Positions 4,806-62,233 of a stretch of 64,000 nucleotides of DNA are shown here, in pieces. Source of the DNA: Bacillales bacterium (GTDB taxonomy: Bacteria; Bacillota_I; Bacilli_A; RF39; UBA660); NCBI GenBank assembly GCA_016282375.1, contig JAEEKI010000016.1, forward strand, positions 39,219-103,218. Direction: 5' to 3'. The notes below the pieces were generated by a model that saw nothing but the letters and a program-made list of their open reading frames with translations, did no database searches and had not been told where the DNA came from. The stretch's first letter is position 1. Each line of letters starts with the position of its first letter. The position numbers and the translations under genes were made by a program.

Positions 4806-7367
4806 TTAAACACCCAAAGGAATATTTTTTTGCTTAAGATATTTTTTACGTAAATAATCTGTTAGCAATAGACTTAAAGACAGTAAGATAACAATGCTTA
4901 ATTCCTTGATTGTTAGACCATAAGTTCTAAATAATTTACCGCCATGATAAATAATGTATAATTGTACAGTAACAATTAAACCGTTGATCAAAATAAATAC
5001 TTTATTTTGCCAAAGATTAGCTAAGATATTTAGACGATGTGTTCTTGCTAAAAAGGAATTAATAATACCTAAAAAAACAAAGAGGGCAAAAAAGGCTGTT
5101 AAAAAATAATTCTCATGAACATCTAAACGAAATAAAGATTTAAGATATGGAAGTTTTAAAAAGATTAAACACAAAATACTCGTATATAAACCATTAATGG
5201 TAATTTGATTTAACATGTAAGGGTTAATAATAGTTTCATCTTTTCTTTTAGGTGGCTCTAACATATATTCCTTTAAAGGAGGTTCATAAGAAAACGCTAA
5301 ACCCGCGAAAGTATCCATAATCATATTGAGCCATAACATTTGTAAGATAGTTATCGGCGAAGCATAACCAATTAGCGTTCCCACGATAGATAATAGCAAT
5401 GCACAAATATTCACCGTTAATTGATAAATAATAAATTTACGAATACTTTTAAAAATTGTTCGACCATATAAAATGGCTTTACATATCGAGGAAATATTAT
5501 CATCTAAGATAACAATATCGGCAGCTTCTTTAGCTACTTCTGTTCCACTTCCTAAAGCAAAACCAACATCACTTTTTTTAAGAGCAATAGCATCATTAAT
5601 GCCATCACCTGTCATCCCTACAATAAATCCTTCATGTTGATAAACACTTACTAAGCGACCTTTATCTTCGGGTAATGCCCGAGCAATAATAGCAATCTTA
5701 TGAGATATTTCACTTAATTCGGTATTACTTAATTGATTAAATTCGTCATGACTTAAAATAAGACTATCATTATTTACTAAACCCAGTTCTTTGCCAATAC
5801 TAACTGCTGTTTCTTTACTATCTCCCGTAATCATGACGGTTTTAATGCCAGCCATTTTGATAGTCTCAAGTGATGACTTTGCTTCCCTACGAAGAGAATC
5901 ACTAATGATGACTAAACTTAGAAAAATAAGATTATGCAAATCTTGGCCATAAGCATGAGCTATAACACGGTATCCTTGTTGCGTATACTTATTAATCTCT
6001 TCGATTATTCTTTGTTTATTATCAAGGTCTAATACCTTGCCTTCCATAGTTAGATATTTTTGACATCTAGATAGAATTACTTCACTTGCTCCCTTGATGT
6101 AATAATAATGGTCACTAGCATAAATATAACTATATTTGGTAGTACTGTCAAAAGGCTCAGTATTAATGACTTGTAAAGGACTCTGATAATCTTTTACCCA
6201 CTTTTTAATGGCTTGATCCGTGGGATTACCTCCGATAATATGATGTTCAGAAATAATAGTTTCATTATTCAAAAGTAAAGAATTAAGTAATATTTCAAAA
6301 TAACGAGGATATTTATTTAACTGTTTGATATTTGTAAAAGATTTTCCATCAATGGTAACAATCTTTTGAACATTTAATTTGCCTTCGGTTAAAGTACCTG
6401 TTTTATCACATAATAAAACATTTAAGGAGCCACTGGTTTCAATTCCTACCATCTTTCTTACTAAAACGTGATCCTTTAACATTTTACGCATATTCGAAGA
6501 TAAAACTAAGGCAGTCATCATCGGTAATCCTTCAGGTACAGCCATAATAATAATGGTAACGGATAATGTTAAGCAATAGATTAAATAATTAATCATTAAA
6601 GGTCCGTTTTTTAGAGTATCAAGAATTAATGGTAACTGAAAATGATTATTAACAAACACTTGTAAAAAGAAATATGATAAGCTTGCTAGAAAAGCTCCTA
6701 GGTAACCTATTTTACTAATCTGTTCGGCTAAGACTTTGAGTTTGGTGCGAAGAGGACTGTCTTCGTTTTTTATTTGCATTTGCTCGGATATCTTACCAAT
6801 AAAAGTTTTTAAACCTACAGTATCAATCTTCAAAAGAGCTTGTCCTTTATAAACAATGCTTCCCCCATAGACTAAACTATCAACTTGTTTATGGATTTCC
6901 TTAGTCTCTCCAGTTAAAAAAGATTCATCAACATCAAGATGTCCTTGAATTAAATGACCATCGGCAGGGACTTTATCACCACTAGTAAGTTTAACAACAT
7001 CCCCTACGACAATATCATTAGACTTAATGACTCTTATTTTGCCATTACGATACACTTTATTATCAATTTCTTCATTTTCTTTCTGAAGACGTTCAAAAGC
7101 TTTATTAGAACCATACTCAGATATCGTCGAAATAAAAGAGGCTAAAAAAATGGCTATTAATATACCAAGTGTTTCATAAATATCAAAACTTTTAAATAAA
7201 AAGATAATTTTAATGGCTAAGGCAATCAAAAGGATTTTAATAATAGGATCACCGAAGGATTCTAAAAGTAGTTTAAAGAAAGTATTGGAATTTTTATTTT
7301 CTAAGATATTACTACCATATTTACTTCTTGCTTTTTTAACTTCTTCATCATTCAAACCAAAAGTCAT
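4806..7367 (-). CDS. cation-transporting P-type ATPase (Ca2+-ATPase-like, type IIA/IIB)
   Basis: TGE loop, CDKTGTLT phosphorylation site, TGDGINDAIALKKSDVG hinge, about 10 TM segments, 853 aa. Ion specificity is inferred from overall resemblance only. Confidence 0.88.
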   Translation of the reverse strand: MTFGLNDEEVKKARSKYGSNILENKNSNTFFKLLLESFGDPIIKILLIALAIKIIFLFKSFDIYETLGILIAIFLASFISTISEYGSNKAFERLQKENEEIDNKVYRNGKIRVIKSNDIVVGDVVKLTSGDKVPADGHLIQGHLDVDESFLTGETKEIHKQVDSLVYGGSIVYKGQALLKIDTVGLKTFIGKISEQMQIKNEDSPLRTKLKVLAEQISKIGYLGAFLASLSYFFLQVFVNNHFQLPLILDTLKNGPLMINYLIYCLTLSVTIIIMAVPEGLPMMTALVLSSNMRKMLKDHVLVRKMVGIETSGSLNVLLCDKTGTLTEGKLNVQKIVTIDGKSFTNIKQLNKYPRYFEILLNSLLLNNETIISEHHIIGGNPTDQAIKKWVKDYQSPLQVINTEPFDSTTKYSYIYASDHYYYIKGASEVILSRCQKYLTMEGKVLDLDNKQRIIEEINKYTQQGYRVIAHAYGQDLHNLIFLSLVIISDSLRREAKSSLETIKMAGIKTVMITGDSKETAVSIGKELGLVNNDSLILSHDEFNQLSNTELSEISHKIAIIARALPEDKGRLVSVYQHEGFIVGMTGDGINDAIALKKSDVGFALGSGTEVAKEAADIVILDDNISSICKAILYGRTIFKSIRKFIIYQLTVNICALLLSIVGTLIGYASPITILQMLWLNMIMDTFAGLAFSYEPPLKEYMLEPPKRKDETIINPYMLNQITINGLYTSILCLIFLKLPYLKSLFRLDVHENYFLTAFFALFVFLGIINSFLARTHRLNILANLWQNKVFILINGLIVTVQLYIIYHGGKLFRTYGLTIKELSIVILLSLSLLLTDYLRKKYLKQKNIPLGV

Positions 7368-10882: not shown

Positions 10883-11054
10883 CGTATTCCTCCTTAATAT
10901 AAGTATAACATGATAATACTAATTTGTTAAGTTATTTACATGTAAATATAGTTACTATTTTACAAAAATAGCACCTCAAAATATAACTATGGTGTTTTCT
11001 ATATGTACTACAATACATAATAAGTACTCCCTATATTCTAAAATCATTATAACA

Positions 11055-11081
11055 TAAAAAAAGCAAGAACAATATCTTGCC
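11055..11081 (-). terminator. intrinsic terminator after pheT
   Basis: GCAAGA/TCTTGC stem followed by a T-run on the minus strand. Confidence 0.55.
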
Positions 11082-11091
11082 TTTAACTATT

Positions 11092-13512
11092 TTACTCTAA
11101 ACGAAGTTCTGCTCCACATTTTTTATTTAAAACATTTAAGATATCTGTCATTTTTTCATTAATTTGTTCAGCATTCATGGATACATCTTCATTGATAAAT
11201 CTTACCTTTAAAGTAAGTGATTTTTTACCTTCAGGAATATGATTGCCATAGTATTCATCGACAAATTCAACTTCATATGCTAAATTCTTAATACTTTTGT
11301 AAATATCTTCCCATTTAGTATCTGTATTAATAATAATCGATAAATCTTTTTCAATAAGAGGAAGTTCAGGAAGTTTTTTATACTTATTAGTTCTTGATGC
11401 AAACGAAGTAAACTTACTGGCATCAATTTCCATTAGAGCAACATTTGTTCTTTTGATCTTGGTTTGGGACATAACTCTTGTTGATAATAATCCCAAATTA
11501 CCAATTACTTCCCCATCTTTTGTGATATTTAAATAAGCATTAATATCAGCCCAAGATGGTTTTTCTTTTTGTTCTAACCGGATATTATCCATATGGGTAT
11601 AAGTAGCCATTTGTTCAATAACACCTTTTAGTTCATAAAAGATTTTCTTTGCATCTTTGCCTGTAATAGAGGCTACTAAACTCTTAGTCTGAATTGGCAA
11701 TACTTCATCTTCGCTCGAAGGACTATATGCTCCTTTTTGATATACTTCATCATATTCAAACATTTTAAATTCATCATAATAACGAAGATTTTTAGAAATA
11801 GCTTCAATCATACCTGGAATTAAAGATGCTTTCAAATTTTTTAGTTCAGGTGCCGGCGGTGTAGCTAGTTTTACACAATTATCTTTATTAATACCTACAG
11901 CATCAAGATATTTTTCCTCAATCCAAGGATAAGTAAAGATTTCATAAAAACCACATCTAAAAGCTAAGTACTCTTTAATTCTTCTTTCTAAAAGATAATC
12001 ATTTTGCTTAATTGAGTGATCAAGATTAATTGTTAATGGTTTTCTTTCAAAACTATCAAAACTTAATATTCTTGCAATATCTCCCATTACATCGTCTTTG
12101 ATAGTTACATCACCTGTAGAACGATATGTTGGTACTGTTACTTCATAAATACCTTTACTATATTTAACTTCATAACCAAGATATGTTAATAGTTCTTTTA
12201 CTGTTTTAGAATCAATTTCTTTACCTAATCTTTCAGTTAACCAACTTTCAGATACTTCGATAATATTCTTTTCTGTTGGATGTAAATAGACATCATTGTA
12301 TTTAATAATTTTACTATCTGGGAATATTTCTTTTATTAAAGATAATGATAAATTAATTCCCTCATCTACTCTTTGCGTATCAAGACCTTTTTCAAAACGA
12401 ATAGCGGAATCCGTTTTTTCAGCAAAACGTTTGTCAGTCTTACGAATAGTACCAGCATCAAAATTAGCAACTTCTAAAACAATACCAGTTGTATCTGGTA
12501 AGATAGAATCATCTTTACCACCACGAATACCTGCTAAACACATTGGCTTTTTAGCATCACAAATAACTAAATCATCTTTTGTTAGTGTAATAGTATTATC
12601 ATCAAGTAATAATAATTCTTCGCCTTCTTTGGCATTACGAACAACAATCTTTTCATCAATTACATGCGTTTTATCAAAGGCATGTAATGGTTGACCAGTA
12701 ACTAACATAACATAATTTGTTATATCAACAATAGCATTAATTGGCCGCATACCACCTTTTACTAAAGTAGATTGCATCCAAATTGGTGATGATATATCTT
12801 TAATACCATCTATTTCAGCAGCTATATATCTATGACATTTATCTTCATCTTGAATAGTTACATCATACTTAGGTAAACTACTATCTACTTCATAAGTATC
12901 TAATGGTTTTAATGGTACTCGATAAATAGTGGATAATTCTCTAGCCAAGCCATAATAACCCCATAAATCTGGACGATTAGATAAAGACTTATTATCAATT
13001 TCTAAAACCGTATCATTTAAATCCATAACATCAGCAATGTTATCACCAGGATTGCAATCTATACCTTTTAAATCAATAATTTCGGTTTCACTTTGTGCAG
13101 GAAAGAAACTGTCTAAGAAGACCTCGGATGAAGCACAAATCATACCATAAGAATCTTCACCACGCATCTTTGTTTCTTTGATGGTAACAGGTTCCCCTTC
13201 CCCGTGCCATACTACTACAGCACCTGGTAAAGCTACGACAACTGACTCACCTTCATAAAGGTTAGATCCCCCACAGACAATTTGTACTGTTTTACTACCA
13301 ACATCAACTTTACAAATCCGTAATTTATCAGCATTTGGATGGGCTTTAACTTCTAAGATTTTACCAACACAAATATTTTGATATTTCTCGGCAAGATTTT
13401 CAACATTTTCAACTTCAACAGTTCGAAGTGTTAAATCATAAGCCATTTGTTTTTCATCAATATCTTTGGGAATATTAACATATTTTTTAATTAAATTTAA
13501 TGAAACTCTCAT
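11092..13512 (-). CDS. pheT: phenylalanine--tRNA ligase beta subunit
   Basis: 806 aa with an N-terminal tRNA-binding domain, B3/4 and B5 domains and a C-terminal FDX-ACB domain. Lies immediately downstream of pheS. Confidence 0.95.
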   Translation of the reverse strand: MRVSLNLIKKYVNIPKDIDEKQMAYDLTLRTVEVENVENLAEKYQNICVGKILEVKAHPNADKLRICKVDVGSKTVQIVCGGSNLYEGESVVVALPGAVVVWHGEGEPVTIKETKMRGEDSYGMICASSEVFLDSFFPAQSETEIIDLKGIDCNPGDNIADVMDLNDTVLEIDNKSLSNRPDLWGYYGLARELSTIYRVPLKPLDTYEVDSSLPKYDVTIQDEDKCHRYIAAEIDGIKDISSPIWMQSTLVKGGMRPINAIVDITNYVMLVTGQPLHAFDKTHVIDEKIVVRNAKEGEELLLLDDNTITLTKDDLVICDAKKPMCLAGIRGGKDDSILPDTTGIVLEVANFDAGTIRKTDKRFAEKTDSAIRFEKGLDTQRVDEGINLSLSLIKEIFPDSKIIKYNDVYLHPTEKNIIEVSESWLTERLGKEIDSKTVKELLTYLGYEVKYSKGIYEVTVPTYRSTGDVTIKDDVMGDIARILSFDSFERKPLTINLDHSIKQNDYLLERRIKEYLAFRCGFYEIFTYPWIEEKYLDAVGINKDNCVKLATPPAPELKNLKASLIPGMIEAISKNLRYYDEFKMFEYDEVYQKGAYSPSSEDEVLPIQTKSLVASITGKDAKKIFYELKGVIEQMATYTHMDNIRLEQKEKPSWADINAYLNITKDGEVIGNLGLLSTRVMSQTKIKRTNVALMEIDASKFTSFASRTNKYKKLPELPLIEKDLSIIINTDTKWEDIYKSIKNLAYEVEFVDEYYGNHIPEGKKSLTLKVRFINEDVSMNAEQINEKMTDILNVLNKKCGAELRLE

Positions 13513-14836: not shown

Positions 14837-14873
14837 ACATGCCTTTTGAAATTATTTCGTGTTCCTACATTTC

Positions 14874-14902
14874 ATTCGGCACGCATTCGGCCTATTCGGC
14901 CT
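14874..14902. repeat. three closely spaced ATTCGGC repeats (the last two form a perfect 9-bp tandem, ATTCGGCCT x2)
   Basis: ATTCGGC occurs at 14874-14880, 14885-14891 and 14894-14900, inside a GC-rich patch between the family-A gene and the pheS -35 box. Confidence 0.7.
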
Positions 14903-14904
14903 TC

Positions 14905-14946
14905 AATTTTGCCTATCGGCAAAATTAGATTCAAGATATTAAGATG
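14905..14946 (-). repeat. conserved 42-nt 3' element with hairpin (copy A)
   Basis: Minus strand reads CATCTTAATATCTTGAATCT + AATTTTGCC-GATA-GGCAAAATT. At 59699-59740 it is identical apart from two positions in the hairpin: one stem position becomes a G-U pair and the loop is GACA instead of GATA. No U-tract follows this copy. Confidence 0.8.
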
Positions 14947-14975
14947 CCCGGAAGGCCCAAGACCCCCGAACACGA

Positions 14976-16109
14976 CTAACCTCCACCCCACGATCCACAA
15001 TAGGCATGACCAGAGGCATCAACTCCACAGCCTTCGTACATAGAGTCATCGCTACAGTTGACATAACCAAGGATGTTCACTCCACAGTTGAGGCCGCCCA
15101 CAGTGCAGCCAGCACCGTCGGCGCTAGCGGCAACGGTGCTTATATTGATCGTTATTCCAGCATCGATAAACGCTTGATATAGTGCTTGTTTGACACTTGC
15201 TTGTTGCTCTGATGTTAAAGTACTATTTAATGTATGTCCACTTAATCCGTATTGGGTATATGGTTGGGATAAACATATTTCATGTCCTTGTATTGTTGCA
15301 CATGCATAATATTTACTACTATCTTGGCCTATATATACGTTATGTCCTGTTGCACTTCCACTACTTTGTAGTGTTCCACCATAATTAGGAAAAGTACATG
15401 GGTTTGAATATGTACATGTCGTGGTATCAAACCAATAACTGGTTAGGCTTGATGGGCTTGCTGTTCCTGCTACACATGAGACATTTGCTACCCTAAACTT
15501 TCCTGCATATGTTTTTCCTGATAATGTACTTTGATCTGATGGCGTATTTACAAATGCACTTTCTAGATACCATACAGCTGTTTCAGTTGTACTGCCAATA
15601 CCAGATATTTTAGCACCGCTTACCACAACTGCACTATTCTGATTACCAACAATATCGGCTAGATCAGCTCCTGTTGAAATATAGTTATTACCTTCAGTTG
15701 CGGTTGTAGTACCAGATTCCAAATATGCTATGATACCTAATTCGATATTAGTCTCTCCCGTGGAATGGGTAGTGTATCGATCAGTACTTGTCCATTCATA
15801 AATAATATCATACGTACATACCATACTATAATCAGTGTTGGCTGTGAAATTAACCGTTAAGGTTGTGTTATTATATGCGGCAACATTTCCAATCTTTGCC
15901 TCTACCATATTAGCTGCTGTTATATTAAGAGACATATCGCCCCCGATAACGTCAAACACCATATTATTTCTCTCTGTTACTGTATTAGCATTTGCTACAT
16001 TCGTTATATTCATATTACCTGTTGCAAAGTATGCAAATGTTGCGCCAATTATTGTTACTAATAATGTTACGATAGCTATTATTAATAAGATTATATTATT
16101 CTTTTTCAT
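14976..16109 (-). CDS. secreted protein with SipW/TasA-type signal peptide and Cys-rich variable C-terminal module (family member A)
   Basis: The N-terminus MKKNNIILLIIAIVTLLVTIIGATFAYFATGN matches the SipW-cognate signal class (hydrophobic core then G-[AT]-[FY]-A-Y-F). It is paralogous to 59784-60917 and 61051-62172. It has its own promoter-like TATAAT, and a terminator lies upstream of it. Confidence 0.8.
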   Translation of the reverse strand: MKKNNIILLIIAIVTLLVTIIGATFAYFATGNMNITNVANANTVTERNNMVFDVIGGDMSLNITAANMVEAKIGNVAAYNNTTLTVNFTANTDYSMVCTYDIIYEWTSTDRYTTHSTGETNIELGIIAYLESGTTTATEGNNYISTGADLADIVGNQNSAVVVSGAKISGIGSTTETAVWYLESAFVNTPSDQSTLSGKTYAGKFRVANVSCVAGTASPSSLTSYWFDTTTCTYSNPCTFPNYGGTLQSSGSATGHNVYIGQDSSKYYACATIQGHEICLSQPYTQYGLSGHTLNSTLTSEQQASVKQALYQAFIDAGITINISTVAASADGAGCTVGGLNCGVNILGYVNCSDDSMYEGCGVDASGHAYCGSWGGG

Positions 16110-59633: not shown

Positions 59634-59698
59634 AAATACTTCCTACTTATATTTTAACAAATTCACATATAATTTGCATTATTTTACAAAAAAAAGCT

Positions 59699-59740
59699 AA
59701 TTTTGCCTGTCGACAAAATTAGATTCAAGATATTAAGATG
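59699..59740 (-). repeat. conserved 42-nt 3' element with hairpin (copy B); here it also looks like an intrinsic terminator
   Basis: Minus strand reads CATCTTAATATCTTGAATCT + AATTTTGTC-GACA-GGCAAAATT, then AGC and T8. Confidence 0.8.
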
Positions 59741-59783
59741 TTCAGAAGAATGCGAGGACGACCAGGCACCAATCTCAGTCACC

Positions 59784-60917
59784 CTACCATCCACAATAGG
59801 CATGACCAGAGGCATCTACCCCACAGCCCGCGTACGCAGAGTAATCGGTACAGTCGACAAAACCGTGGATGCTCACTTCACAGCTGAGGTCGCCCACACT
59901 GCAGCTAGCGTTGTCGTCGCGAGCGCCGCAATTATCTATATCGACTGTTATTCCGGCATCGATAAAGGCTTGATATATTGCCTCTAAGGCACTTGCTTGT
60001 TGTTCTGATGTTAAATTACTATTTAATGTATGTCCACTTAATCCATATTGGGTATATGGTTGACTTAAACATATTTCATGTCCTGTTATTGTTGCACATG
60101 CATAGTACTTACTACTATCTTGGCCTATATATACATTATGTCCAGTGTCTGTTCCACTACTTTGTAATGTTCCTCCGTAATTTGGATGTGTATATATAGG
60201 TTCATATTGTTCGGTATTATCATTCCATTCTGATAATGCAAACCAATATCCTGTTGGACCTGGTACTGGTACTGTTCCGGCTGTACATGACACATTAGCT
60301 ACTTTAAACCTACCACTATATGTTTTGCCTGATAAAGCACTTTGATCTTGGCTTACATTATAAAATTTACTTGATAGGGTCCATACGGCAGTACTCATGG
60401 TATTTCCCGTTCCATCGATTTGCGCTCCACTTACAACTGTTGCTGCATAATTTGTATATGTTAAACTTGAAAGGTCTGTTTCACTACTTATACTGTTTGT
60501 TCCTTGTGATACATGCGCATTATTTGCAAGTGTTCCTTGAATCGTAAATTCATTTGATGTTACTCCACTTGTATGTGCTGTATACTTATCACTTGAAGTC
60601 CATTCATAAATGATGTCATATGTACACACCATACTATAATCTGTATTGGCCGTGAAATTTACCGTTAGTGTCGTGGAATTATTGGCTGCTACTGTTCCAT
60701 TACTGGCTTGAACCATGTTGGCTGCCGTTATATTTAGACTCATTCCACCACCTATAGTATCAAAGACCATGTTATTTCGTTCTGTTATCGTATTAGCATT
60801 TGCTACATTGGTTATATTCATATTACCTGTTGAAAAATAAGCATATGTGGCTCCGATTACTAAGGCTAATAGCGTTGTTATGGCTATGGTTATTAAAATG
60901 ATATTATTCTTTTTCAT
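59784..60917 (-). CDS. secreted protein with SipW/TasA-type signal peptide and Cys-rich variable C-terminal module (family member B)
   Basis: MKKNNIILITIAITTLLALVIGATYAYFSTGN. The start is set at ATG 60917 after AGAGGT, rather than the track's TTG at 60947. The N-terminal two thirds resemble member C; the last third and the 3' UTR resemble member A. Confidence 0.8.
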   Translation of the reverse strand: MKKNNIILITIAITTLLALVIGATYAYFSTGNMNITNVANANTITERNNMVFDTIGGGMSLNITAANMVQASNGTVAANNSTTLTVNFTANTDYSMVCTYDIIYEWTSSDKYTAHTSGVTSNEFTIQGTLANNAHVSQGTNSISSETDLSSLTYTNYAATVVSGAQIDGTGNTMSTAVWTLSSKFYNVSQDQSALSGKTYSGRFKVANVSCTAGTVPVPGPTGYWFALSEWNDNTEQYEPIYTHPNYGGTLQSSGTDTGHNVYIGQDSSKYYACATITGHEICLSQPYTQYGLSGHTLNSNLTSEQQASALEAIYQAFIDAGITVDIDNCGARDDNASCSVGDLSCEVSIHGFVDCTDYSAYAGCGVDASGHAYCGW

Positions 60918-61050: not shown

Positions 61051-62172
61051 TTAATCATTATAACCGCTGTAAACATCGCCTTCGGGGGTAATGGCAACAC
61101 TTATCAAACCATTATCAACACAACCAACCCAGCCTCCTGCTGTAACATAGCATTGTTGACTATGATTGTTAAAATAGCACTTAACAGTGTCAGCGCCATA
61201 TCCGCAATCATTGATAGTAAGATTCATTCCCTCATTAATTAATGCTTCATAAAGAGCATTCTTCGCACTTGTTTGTTGAACACTTGTAAAATAACTATTA
61301 ATTGTATGTCCACTTAGCCCATATTGGGTATATGGTTGCGATAAACATACCTCATGACCATTACCATCGCTTGCACAGGCATAATACTTACTACTATCTT
61401 GACCAACGTAGACATCATGTCCTGTTGCACTTCCTGTTGTTTGTTGAACCCCTCCTACTGTTGGAAATGTATAATATGTTTCTATTGTCGATGGGTACCA
61501 ATAACTTGTTGGTCCTGATGCAGTTACAGTACCAGCGGTACATGAGACATTTGCCACCTTAAACTTTCCTGCATATGTTTTTCCTGACAACGCACTTTGA
61601 TCACCATCAACATTGTAAAATTTACTTGTTAGAGTCCATACCGCCGTACTCATTGTATTGCCTGTTCCATCTATTTGAGCACCTGATACAACCGTTGTAC
61701 TGTTGCTTGTATATGTAAATGTTGATAAATCTTTTTCACCATTAATACTATTTGTTCCTTTACTAACATGGGCATTTGAAGCTAGTGTTCCTTGAATCGT
61801 AAATTCATTTGATGATACTCCTGTTGAATGAGCCATATATTTATCTGATGATGTCCATTCATATACAATATCATACGTACATACCATACTATATTCGGTA
61901 TTAGCCGTGAAATTTACCGTTAGTGTTGTATTATTCTCCGCGGCGACATTTCCACTTAGACTCTCAGCCATATTCGCAGCTGTAATATTTAGTATCATTC
62001 CACCACCTAAGGTATCAAATACCATGTTGTTTCGTTCTGTTACCGTATTAGCATTAACAACATTTGTTATATTTAAATTACCTGTTGCAAAATATGCATA
62101 TGTTGCTCCGATTACTAAGGCTAATAATATTACTATAATAATTGTTATTAAAACAGCATTATTCTTTTTCAT
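61051..62172 (-). CDS. secreted protein with SipW/TasA-type signal peptide (family member C, AT-rich C-terminal module)
   Basis: MKKNNAVLITIIIVILLALVIGATYAYFATGN. The start is set at ATG 62172. It lies in tandem with member B, and the two share a near-identical 5' UTR. Confidence 0.8.
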   Translation of the reverse strand: MKKNNAVLITIIIVILLALVIGATYAYFATGNLNITNVVNANTVTERNNMVFDTLGGGMILNITAANMAESLSGNVAAENNTTLTVNFTANTEYSMVCTYDIVYEWTSSDKYMAHSTGVSSNEFTIQGTLASNAHVSKGTNSINGEKDLSTFTYTSNSTTVVSGAQIDGTGNTMSTAVWTLTSKFYNVDGDQSALSGKTYAGKFKVANVSCTAGTVTASGPTSYWYPSTIETYYTFPTVGGVQQTTGSATGHDVYVGQDSSKYYACASDGNGHEVCLSQPYTQYGLSGHTINSYFTSVQQTSAKNALYEALINEGMNLTINDCGYGADTVKCYFNNHSQQCYVTAGGWVGCVDNGLISVAITPEGDVYSGYND

Positions 62173-62233
62173 ACGAACACCTCTACTATAAAAAGTATAC
62201 AATATAAATTTCTTTTTTTAAATAAAAAACCAA

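Follow-up and report, generated by a model that had tools for sequence, protein, structure and literature searches.

How can a hypervariable block at the 3' end of a gene go on varying past the stop codon, into untranslated sequence? The question is raised by a 64,000-nt stretch of DNA from a Bacillales bacterium (the window; C21:39219-103218 of genome G000, a 1.08-Mb metagenome-assembled genome (MAG) with 29% GC in 24 contigs, 85% complete), in which two paralogous genes of 377 aa, A and B, end in such a block. Here we argue that the modules at loci A and B are, almost beyond doubt, target sites of a diversity-generating retroelement (DGR), in which a variable repeat (VR) is rewritten from a template repeat (TR) by way of a reverse transcriptase (RT). 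The explanation that best covers all the observations, held with reasonable though limited confidence, is that of a DGR target module which is an orphan, or relic, in this genome. The variation crosses the stop because the stretch of DNA that is rewritten extends beyond it, which settles the puzzle.

Organization of the two loci

On the minus strand, which carries every feature of the window described here, genes A (14976..16109) and B (59784..60917) show the same order of variable block, 28-mer, GC-rich spacer and hairpin element. This order and its coordinates had been reported in a preliminary description of the window and are borne out at both loci, as is the position of the stop codon at different spots of the GC-rich stretch (59784-59786 in B, 14976-14978 in A). 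The extent given for the variable block needs correction, in that the block exists but rewriting starts, judged by homology to the TRs of sister species, at 59931 (B) and 15135 (A) rather than at 59946 and 15150. With the spacer included, the rewritten tracts span 59741-59931 in B and 14946-15135 in A. The variable blocks are 59% GC and 16% A in B and 57% GC and 16% A in A, and the gene bodies 35% GC and 39% A in B and 36% GC and 37% A in A. Genes A and B are 83% identical in the gene body, 82% in the 133-nt VR block and 89% in the hairpin element, whilst their spacers are only 64% identical (57% in the last 30 nt), in keeping with the poor alignment of the spacer between conserved neighbours that had been noted earlier.

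In B, alignment to the TRs of two sister species (L047 and L051, see below) places the coding part of the VR, an adenine-mutagenised tract of 145 nt, at 59787..59931, with NNC codons at sites where the sister TRs read AAC. The TAG stop (59784..59786) lies at the ancestral stop position inside the TR-templated tract and is followed by the post-stop GC-rich spacer (59741..59783; 14% A), whose core, gtgcctggtcgtcctcgc..., belongs to type 1 of those described below and which is the non-coding 3' part of the VR, resembling an initiation of mutagenic homing (IMH) element. An AT box, (c)ATCTTAATATCTTGAAT (59723..59740), separates this IMH-like end from a hairpin, CTAATTTTGTC-GACA-GGCAAAATTAG (59697..59722), which is predicted by DNA folding to have a stem of 11 bp, one of them a G-T pair, and a 4-nt loop of the GRNA type; a run of eight T lies 3' of it (59688..59695).

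The coding part of the VR of A (14979..15135) includes 12 extra nt, or four codons, read past the lost ancestral stop. The latter (14988..14990) now reads TGG, the adenine of TAG having become G, and the current TAG stop lies downstream at 14976..14978. The first Cys codon of the C-terminal Cys ladder has been lost in A through non-adenine changes. The spacer core of A (type 3, 14946..14975) is 70% GC with no adenine in 30 nt and is followed by an AT box (14927..14945) and a hairpin, AATTTTGCC-GATA-GGCAAAATT (14905..14926; DNA fold, region z = -3.7), with a 9-bp stem, a GRNA-type loop and no T-run. A second element (14859..14904) consists of two small hairpins, GGCC-GAATA-GGCC and GTGCC...GGAAC (the latter also written GGCAC).

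The module in the rest of the genome

A BLAST search of the genome with the module, as the preliminary description had proposed, recovered 18 copies on 14 contigs, several of them at contig ends. A and B are thus both copies, as had been claimed, but far from the only ones. All 18 lie at the 3' end of an open reading frame (ORF) of the same protein family, which has 48 matches in the genome, and no silent or promoterless copy was found by this search. The AT box is nearly invariant in all 18 copies and in the sister species, and AT box and hairpin occur in this genome only after family genes. In A and B the hairpins have stems of 9-11 bp and loops GATA (A) and GACA (B), and begin ~20-25 nt after the end of TR homology, in agreement with the loop type and distance expected of DGR hairpins. 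Among the 18 copies, 7 have loops other than GRNA, and the hairpin copies show conservation but not informative double changes. Eight of the 18 modules are followed by the second element, which in the sister species sits between the VR hairpin and the MutS-like ORF (L047:11216-11270; L051:1073-1125). A hairpin followed by a T-run gives B (T8) and the other T-run copies the look of an intrinsic terminator, a look that A and the seven other copies with the second element do not share. No Rfam family matched the module, the second element or the spacer between TR and avd of the sister species. The 28-mer (GATGCCTCTGGTCATGCCTATTGTGGAT) is, as first stated, identical in A and B, but it is not an invariant element of the module, since the copy on C13 has one mismatch and the other copies have 3-6 or more; it is no more than an adenine-poor stretch (4 A in 28) of the coding part of the VR.

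A complete cassette in two sister species

Comparison with related genomes, another check that had been suggested, showed that in two sister species a full DGR cassette, comprising a MutS-like ORF, a TR, Avd and an RT, lies beside a gene of the same family. The first is represented by an ENA scaffold, L047, with ~85% nucleotide identity to this genome, which encodes a homologue of B (P0022, 71% identical) and has the order rpoA-rplQ, family gene, MutS-like ORF (127 aa, with a weak match to MutS domain I), TR, bAvd (PF22296), RT (PF00078) and parA-parB. Its repeats are 189 nt long (TR 11728-11916, with 55 A; VR 10993-11181) and all 26 mismatches between them fall on TR adenines, one of them in the stop codon, whose middle base is changed (TAA to TGA), and four further 3' of it. 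The homology ends 6 nt before ATCTTAATATC, and box and hairpin are present on the VR side only. The spacer recurs in a second VR of this sample, which lies remote from the first on a different scaffold.

In the second sister species (L050-L053) the RT protein and a 185-nt TR are identical in four samples, in three of which the adjacent VR is available. Between these three the flanks of the VR show no difference in 2400 nt downstream and 131-140 nt upstream, whilst the VRs themselves differ pairwise at 26-36 positions, with 85 of 91 differences at TR adenines. The TAA stop of the TR reads TGA, GGA and TTA in the three samples, and where it reads GGA or TTA the frame stays open as far as a back-up TAG. 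These differences are direct evidence that mutagenic retrohoming is live in the clade. The RTs of L047 and L050-L053 carry the motifs IGDQTSQ and YMDD. In the sisters taken together the direct TR/VR tests place 26/26 and 73/76 mismatches at TR adenines, the homology extends over 185-189 nt, spanning the stop codon and the entire GC-rich spacer and ending 5-6 nt before the AT box, and the adenine-free, GC-rich cores are identical in TR and VR, with the sequence diverging right after them.

Static VRs are found among the sisters too, the pairs L058 and L059 and L060 and L061 being identical between samples, and L057 has a VR without a hairpin. Because such decayed or static VRs also occur in a sister sample, decay of targets is common in the clade.

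As a side observation, the ~170 nt between TR and avd are strongly conserved in three sister lineages (L047:11917-12087, L051:1769-1946, L054:30-214), with motifs such as ctatatttaatt..aaggttaattatca..attccttgtggaaacacaaaaaa.atgtagcaaatggaa; in the DGR RNA this stretch probably forms the structured spacer that serves in priming.

The adenine signature at A, B and the other copies

In order to compare the copies of this genome with the sister templates, adenine columns were defined as positions at which the TRs of both sister species (L047 and L051) have A, which gave 41 A and 97 non-A columns. Across 15 non-redundant copies the hypervariable columns are first and second codon positions in which A is the plurality base and all four bases are present, with near-invariant C, G and T columns between them. 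The copies are changed at 32-71% of the sister-TR adenine columns (states A 346, G 147, T 134, C 61), and column entropy is 1.43 bits at TR adenines as against 0.51 bits at the remaining columns (Mann-Whitney p = 1e-14). Relative to the sister TRs, B is changed at 21/41 adenine but 2/97 non-adenine columns, and A at 22/41 and 9/97 respectively. When A and B are compared directly, the differences fall on 17/41 A columns versus 11/97 non-A columns (Fisher p = 1.4e-4).

The preliminary description had proposed a process acting on DNA, namely retrohoming with an IMH-like boundary or cassette replacement, on the ground that the divergence runs past the reading frame. The first of these is upheld by the sister TRs, which are homologous to the VR past the stop and through the spacer, with mismatches at adenines also 3' of the stop. 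Cassette replacement from silent copies does not stand as the main process, as every module ends an expressed-looking family gene and promoterless cassettes were not found.

Plain divergence of the two loci since an old duplication, in which a binding surface came under diversifying selection and the 3' untranslated region drifted neutrally, would suit the non-adenine difference of 11% between A and B, which is about that of the gene body (17%), and the VRs that are static between samples where comparable, but it can be dismissed with near certainty given the adenine-column specificity, the same variation beyond the stop where selection on the protein does not reach, and a spacer at random-level identity (57%) between neighbours of 83% and 89% that is nevertheless identical to the spacer of another paralogue.

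Proposed mechanism

The mechanism that we propose would run as follows. A TR-bearing RNA would be reverse-transcribed by the DGR RT together with Avd and the MutS-like accessory protein, template adenines would be copied at random, and the resulting cDNA would replace the 185-189 nt VR at the 3' end of the target gene. The rewritten tract would begin where the C-terminal Cys-ladder domain has its first Cys codon, continue across the stop codon into ~40 nt that are not translated, and end in the adenine-poor, GC-rich core common to TR and VR, which would serve as the IMH-like element. The AT box and GRNA-loop hairpin, present just downstream on the VR side only, would mark the recipient; these roles in recipient recognition are suggested by their position and conservation, and the hairpin of B is a probable DGR target-recognition hairpin.

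The GC-rich spacer is, by its homology to the sister templates, the untranslated, TR-templated 3' part of the VR, with its adenine-free core as the IMH-like element, and the variation extends past the stop because this untranslated spacer is templated. The stop itself would shift because its own adenines are mutagenised, with in-frame back-up stops following. The change from TAG to TGG at the ancestral stop, which is seen in A and in the copies on C6, C7 and C10, explains why A ends ...CGSWGGG* and B ...CGW*.

Spacer core types and their presumed templates

The preliminary description had considered that the two spacers might simply have drifted apart after duplication. The spacers of this genome fall instead into at least four discrete types, plus singles: type 1 (B, C1a, C1b, C7, C17e and C22, loosely C9 and C20b, and also the copy in another MAG, L046), type 2 (C10, C13, C14), type 3 (A and C18a), type 4 (C5 and C20s) and the single spacers of C6, C16b and C18b. 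Copies of type 2, and likewise those of type 3, share 93-100% identity over the last 30 nt, as against 79-83% for the gene bodies; for example, the last 30 nt of the spacer of A (32 by eye) are 100% identical to those of the copy at C18:16000-16307, whilst the gene bodies share 83%. Between types, spacer identity is at random level even though bodies and hairpin boxes are 83-89% identical. The cores of this genome have 0-5 A in 30 nt and 53-70% GC. Those of L047, L051 and L054 each differ again, and together with types 1-4 they bring the clade to at least seven core types.

The spacers of A and B thus differ because they carry different IMH core types (3 and 1), which points to discrete replacements and not to drift, and therefore to different templates. 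Given that in each sister genome the core of the TR matches that of the VR, a separate template for every core type is the most economical interpretation. Spacer, loop and downstream types occur in mosaic combinations, and therefore recombination among copies also occurs.

A bolder idea, to which we give little credence, is that the cores act as addresses that pair a target with its own template, so that several parallel DGR circuits ran, or are still running off the assembly, in one small genome. They would do so on a single non-lectin, Cys-ladder family with the stop in the mutagenised tract, so that the length of the C-terminus varies.

Segmental gene conversion or recombination among the ~48 paralogues, with the 28-mer, AT box and hairpin as anchors, would account for these mosaics of spacer, hairpin-loop and downstream types, for a 5' part of one VR that is common to two genes and two 3' ends at contig ends, and for the mosaic 5' parts of family genes in different samples (see below). 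It leaves unexplained that the variable columns are those of TR adenines with A as the plurality base, as well as the GC-rich, adenine-poor composition; no silent or promoterless cassettes to draw on were found, every module ending a family ORF, and the change in the sisters is TR-templated and adenine-only. We therefore consider it very unlikely as the source of the variation, but recombination probably plays a secondary part by shuffling the modules.

State of the system in this genome

Searches of the MAG for the remainder of a DGR were negative. No protein matched the RT family PF00078, and a scan for the RT motifs YxDD and GxxxSQ under three genetic codes gave a single match, on C6, which does not make a convincing RT. 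tblastn with the sister MutS-like (MSL), Avd and RT proteins found nothing in this genome, BLAST with both modules and the inferred TR matched VRs only, and the TR-avd spacer is absent from the assembly. The site syntenic to the cassette at L051:1121-3488 is empty (C22:2749/2774), with the VR module running directly into a DUF1016 gene and parA. Two candidates were set aside, a 357-aa ORF downstream of A, considered as an RT, which is PheS, and a near-TR-like copy common to C13, C16 and C17, considered as a TR, which carries the hairpin and non-A states at TR-adenine columns and is thus a VR.

Nor did the copies keep the agreement outside adenines that is seen in the sisters. Non-A columns deviate from their own consensus at 2-26% (B 2%, A 9%), compared with 0-1% for sister VRs against their TR, and pairs of copies differ at 3-32 of the 97 non-A columns and never at none. 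Comparison between samples of this species covered the loci on C22 and C9 and at the start of C17, all of which were 100% identical between assemblies (JAEEGH, JAEEGJ) over the VR and those parts of spacer and hairpin that each contig includes, with the first third of these genes mosaic. A VR differing between samples within identical flanks, as found in the L050-L053 sister, was seen at none of these three loci.

Beyond this genome, a DNA search at genus level found the module in no other genome among 21 others, and one at family level in none among 400 others, the latter being insensitive, with two candidates scored per genome. A scan of genome contigs recovered one other MAG with a type 1 module, Bacillales bacterium Tb.RUG.7 (L046). 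Metagenome scans gave no match with the type 3 core and, with the type 1 pattern, the source assembly of the MAG itself and one contig from a sibling sample.

Because the cassette is missing at the syntenic site, the non-A columns have drifted and the compared VRs are frozen, we consider it probable that the modules are no longer rewritten in this genome and are relic, or orphan, targets. The alternative that survives best holds that the modules are live, their cassette or cassettes, perhaps one per core type, residing in the unassembled 15% or in a co-resident phage or plasmid and acting in trans. Remote targets are within reach of DGRs (Wu et al., 2018; PMC5758913), DGR RTs are present in many genomes of the same genus, and the cores of types 2 and 3 (93-100%) are more conserved than the gene body, suggesting constraint or recent templating. 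No part of the 2.4-kb cassette is in the assembly, however, the closest RT to the sister RT is at most 71% identical among 5.8 billion proteins, and viral contigs contained no match to the hairpin or TR patterns. With the empty syntenic site, the absence of any VR pair agreeing at all non-A positions and the three loci identical between samples, this makes live modules a possibility, but a distinctly less probable one than relics.

Several points weigh against the relic interpretation or the assignment to DGRs on which it builds. The MAG is only 85% complete, and a repeat-flanked cassette of 2.4 kb could have remained unbinned, so that the absence of an RT is not proof. The evidence for loci frozen between samples comes from C22, C9 and C17-start and not from A or B, and the samples compared may share a strain. 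Both A and B retain intact GRNA-loop hairpins and adenine-poor cores, and B, deviating at 2% of non-A columns, could still be a competent target. The adenine specificity is derived from sister TRs and column statistics and not from a cognate pair of this genome. The hairpin stems are AT-rich, unlike the GC-rich stems of characterised DGRs. Finally, four or more core types in one genome are not explained by a single lost TR.

Where this species varies today appears to lie elsewhere. The first 200-600 nt of family genes, encoding signal peptide and N-terminal domain, are mosaic between sibling samples, with 8-31 mismatches per 100 nt (C22:1421-1999 of G000 against L065; C9:7288-7499 against L066), and no difference is seen in their 3' 700-1000 nt, to which the VR belongs. 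The variation of the present day thus seems to stem from recombination among paralogues at the 5' end and not from the VR.

A further DGR is known in the same genus (L023, G003:C1, 3806-7958), with a target ORF that has its VR at 5398-5494, a TR at 5641-5737, an MSL-like ORF, an Avd-like ORF and an RT. It was discarded as a source of the VRs described here, being of the classic C-type lectin (CLec) type with an unrelated TR; the genus has at least two types of DGR target.

The target protein

The protein encoded by B is an exported protein of 377 aa with an N-terminal signal or anchor (IGATYAYFST), a beta-rich body and a C-terminal Cys-ladder domain. The N-terminus resembles SipW-type signal peptides, a likeness that NCBIfam did not confirm, and neither Pfam nor NCBIfam gave a match for A, B or the third paralogue that stands in tandem with B. 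An AlphaFold2 model of B from a 72-sequence alignment has a mean predicted local distance difference test score (pLDDT) of 83.9, with residues 300-377 above 90 and forming a helix that leads into a beta-hairpin meander containing conserved cysteines. Foldseek of this model against the PDB returned no match at E <= 1e-3 and none to a C-type lectin, and on the model the variable domain does not look like a C-type lectin fold. DGR variable domains almost always have this fold.

The third paralogue (61051..62202, 41% GC) lacks VR, spacer and hairpin; it ends in a Cys ladder as in B, but in AT-rich codons. A similar non-VR paralogue with its Cys-ladder C-terminus in AT-rich codons occurs in a sister genome (L048:2501-3598). 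Both provide a natural non-diversified control for the Cys-ladder domain. Another family member, P0070 (ENA, 510 aa), has precomputed Pfam matches to PT-HINT (PF07591) and intein splicing (PF14890), suggesting that here the same N-terminal scaffold carries a C-terminal extension akin to those of polymorphic toxins.

Other features of the copies and their neighbours

At C20:49579-50150 a VR-bearing C-terminal domain ends an open frame of 763 aa, in place of the usual protein of ~380 aa, so that the diversified domain is joined to a different N-terminal part. Partial AT boxes with hairpins follow distant family paralogues without a recognisable VR block at C10:40568-40592 and C17:13814-13841. 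Four contig ends (C16:1-154, C17:1-153, C13:2-230 and C17:19549-19831) share one identical 5' part of a VR, which joins two genes to two different spacer and hairpin ends, and on a sibling-sample contig (L063) the C17-start gene is joined to yet another 3' end, one missing from the MAG, with a T-box and valS after it; this arrangement of C13, C16, C17 and L063 is a repeat-caused assembly tangle.

Paralogous DUF1016/YhcG genes (PD-(D/E)XK nuclease-like) repeatedly flank family genes, both in this genome (C22:2860-3760, C16:4174-5136, C16:1087-2014, C5:2655-3603, C1:37016-37986 and C1:42962-43912) and on other scaffolds (L050:2583-3485; L049:4923-5945). In the L050-L053 lineage such a gene directly follows the DGR RT and may be an accessory or part of a duplicated unit.

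Comparison with known systems

Sisters with a cassette and a species with an empty site and 18 targets offer a natural comparison for the fate of a target array after loss of the retroelement, which should also be useful for studying co-evolution of IMH core and TR and whether the core decides which TR writes which target.

The closest model is the DGR of phage BPP-1, which needs a hairpin or cruciform just downstream of the VR; the hairpins of phage DGRs have GC-rich stems of 7-10 bp and 4-nt GRNA loops, and lie 4-34 bp from the VR (Guo et al., 2011; PMC3240598). As in BPP-1, the VR is at the 3' end of the target gene, change relative to the TR is adenine-specific, TR and VR share a GC-rich 3' element, a hairpin with a 4-nt GRNA loop follows shortly downstream on the VR side only and, in the sisters, Avd and RT adjoin the TR. 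In BPP-1, however, the IMH belongs to the coding sequence, with the stop in the 4 bp that separate it from the hairpin, whilst here the stop is itself subject to mutagenesis, being placed ~40 nt within the templated tract. Apart from GCC/GGC at its top, the stem is AT-rich here; it is preceded by a near-invariant AT box, and the target is chromosomal and present in many copies, with a variable domain that is not of the CLec type and with no TR or RT in the genome.

Amongst cellular DGRs, a survey described the IMH/IMH* arrangement and a class of MSL accessory genes co-occurring with avd, and counted at most seven non-adjacent targets (Wu et al., 2018; PMC5758913). The much larger genome of Thiohalocapsa PB-PSB1 contains 15 targets, which are served by 9 DGRs. 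Like Treponema denticola and other cellular DGRs with remote targets (PMC5758913), the clade combines one type of retroelement with several non-adjacent chromosomal targets; unlike them, this genome has 18 VR-type modules in 1.08 Mb, of at least four core types, and no cassette. With a stop codon inside the VR, an AT box and AT-rich hairpin, a non-lectin domain, 18 copies and at least four core types, the module is an unusual variant of a DGR target site, and its unusual features can be tested in the reconstituted DGR assays now available. Inactivated DGRs (Schillinger et al., 2012; PMC3521204) resemble it in that the adenine signature is kept and other substitutions accumulate in the VR, as expected once rewriting stops; they keep a broken RT or TR, whereas in this genome the syntenic site has lost the cassette altogether and a large array of targets persists.

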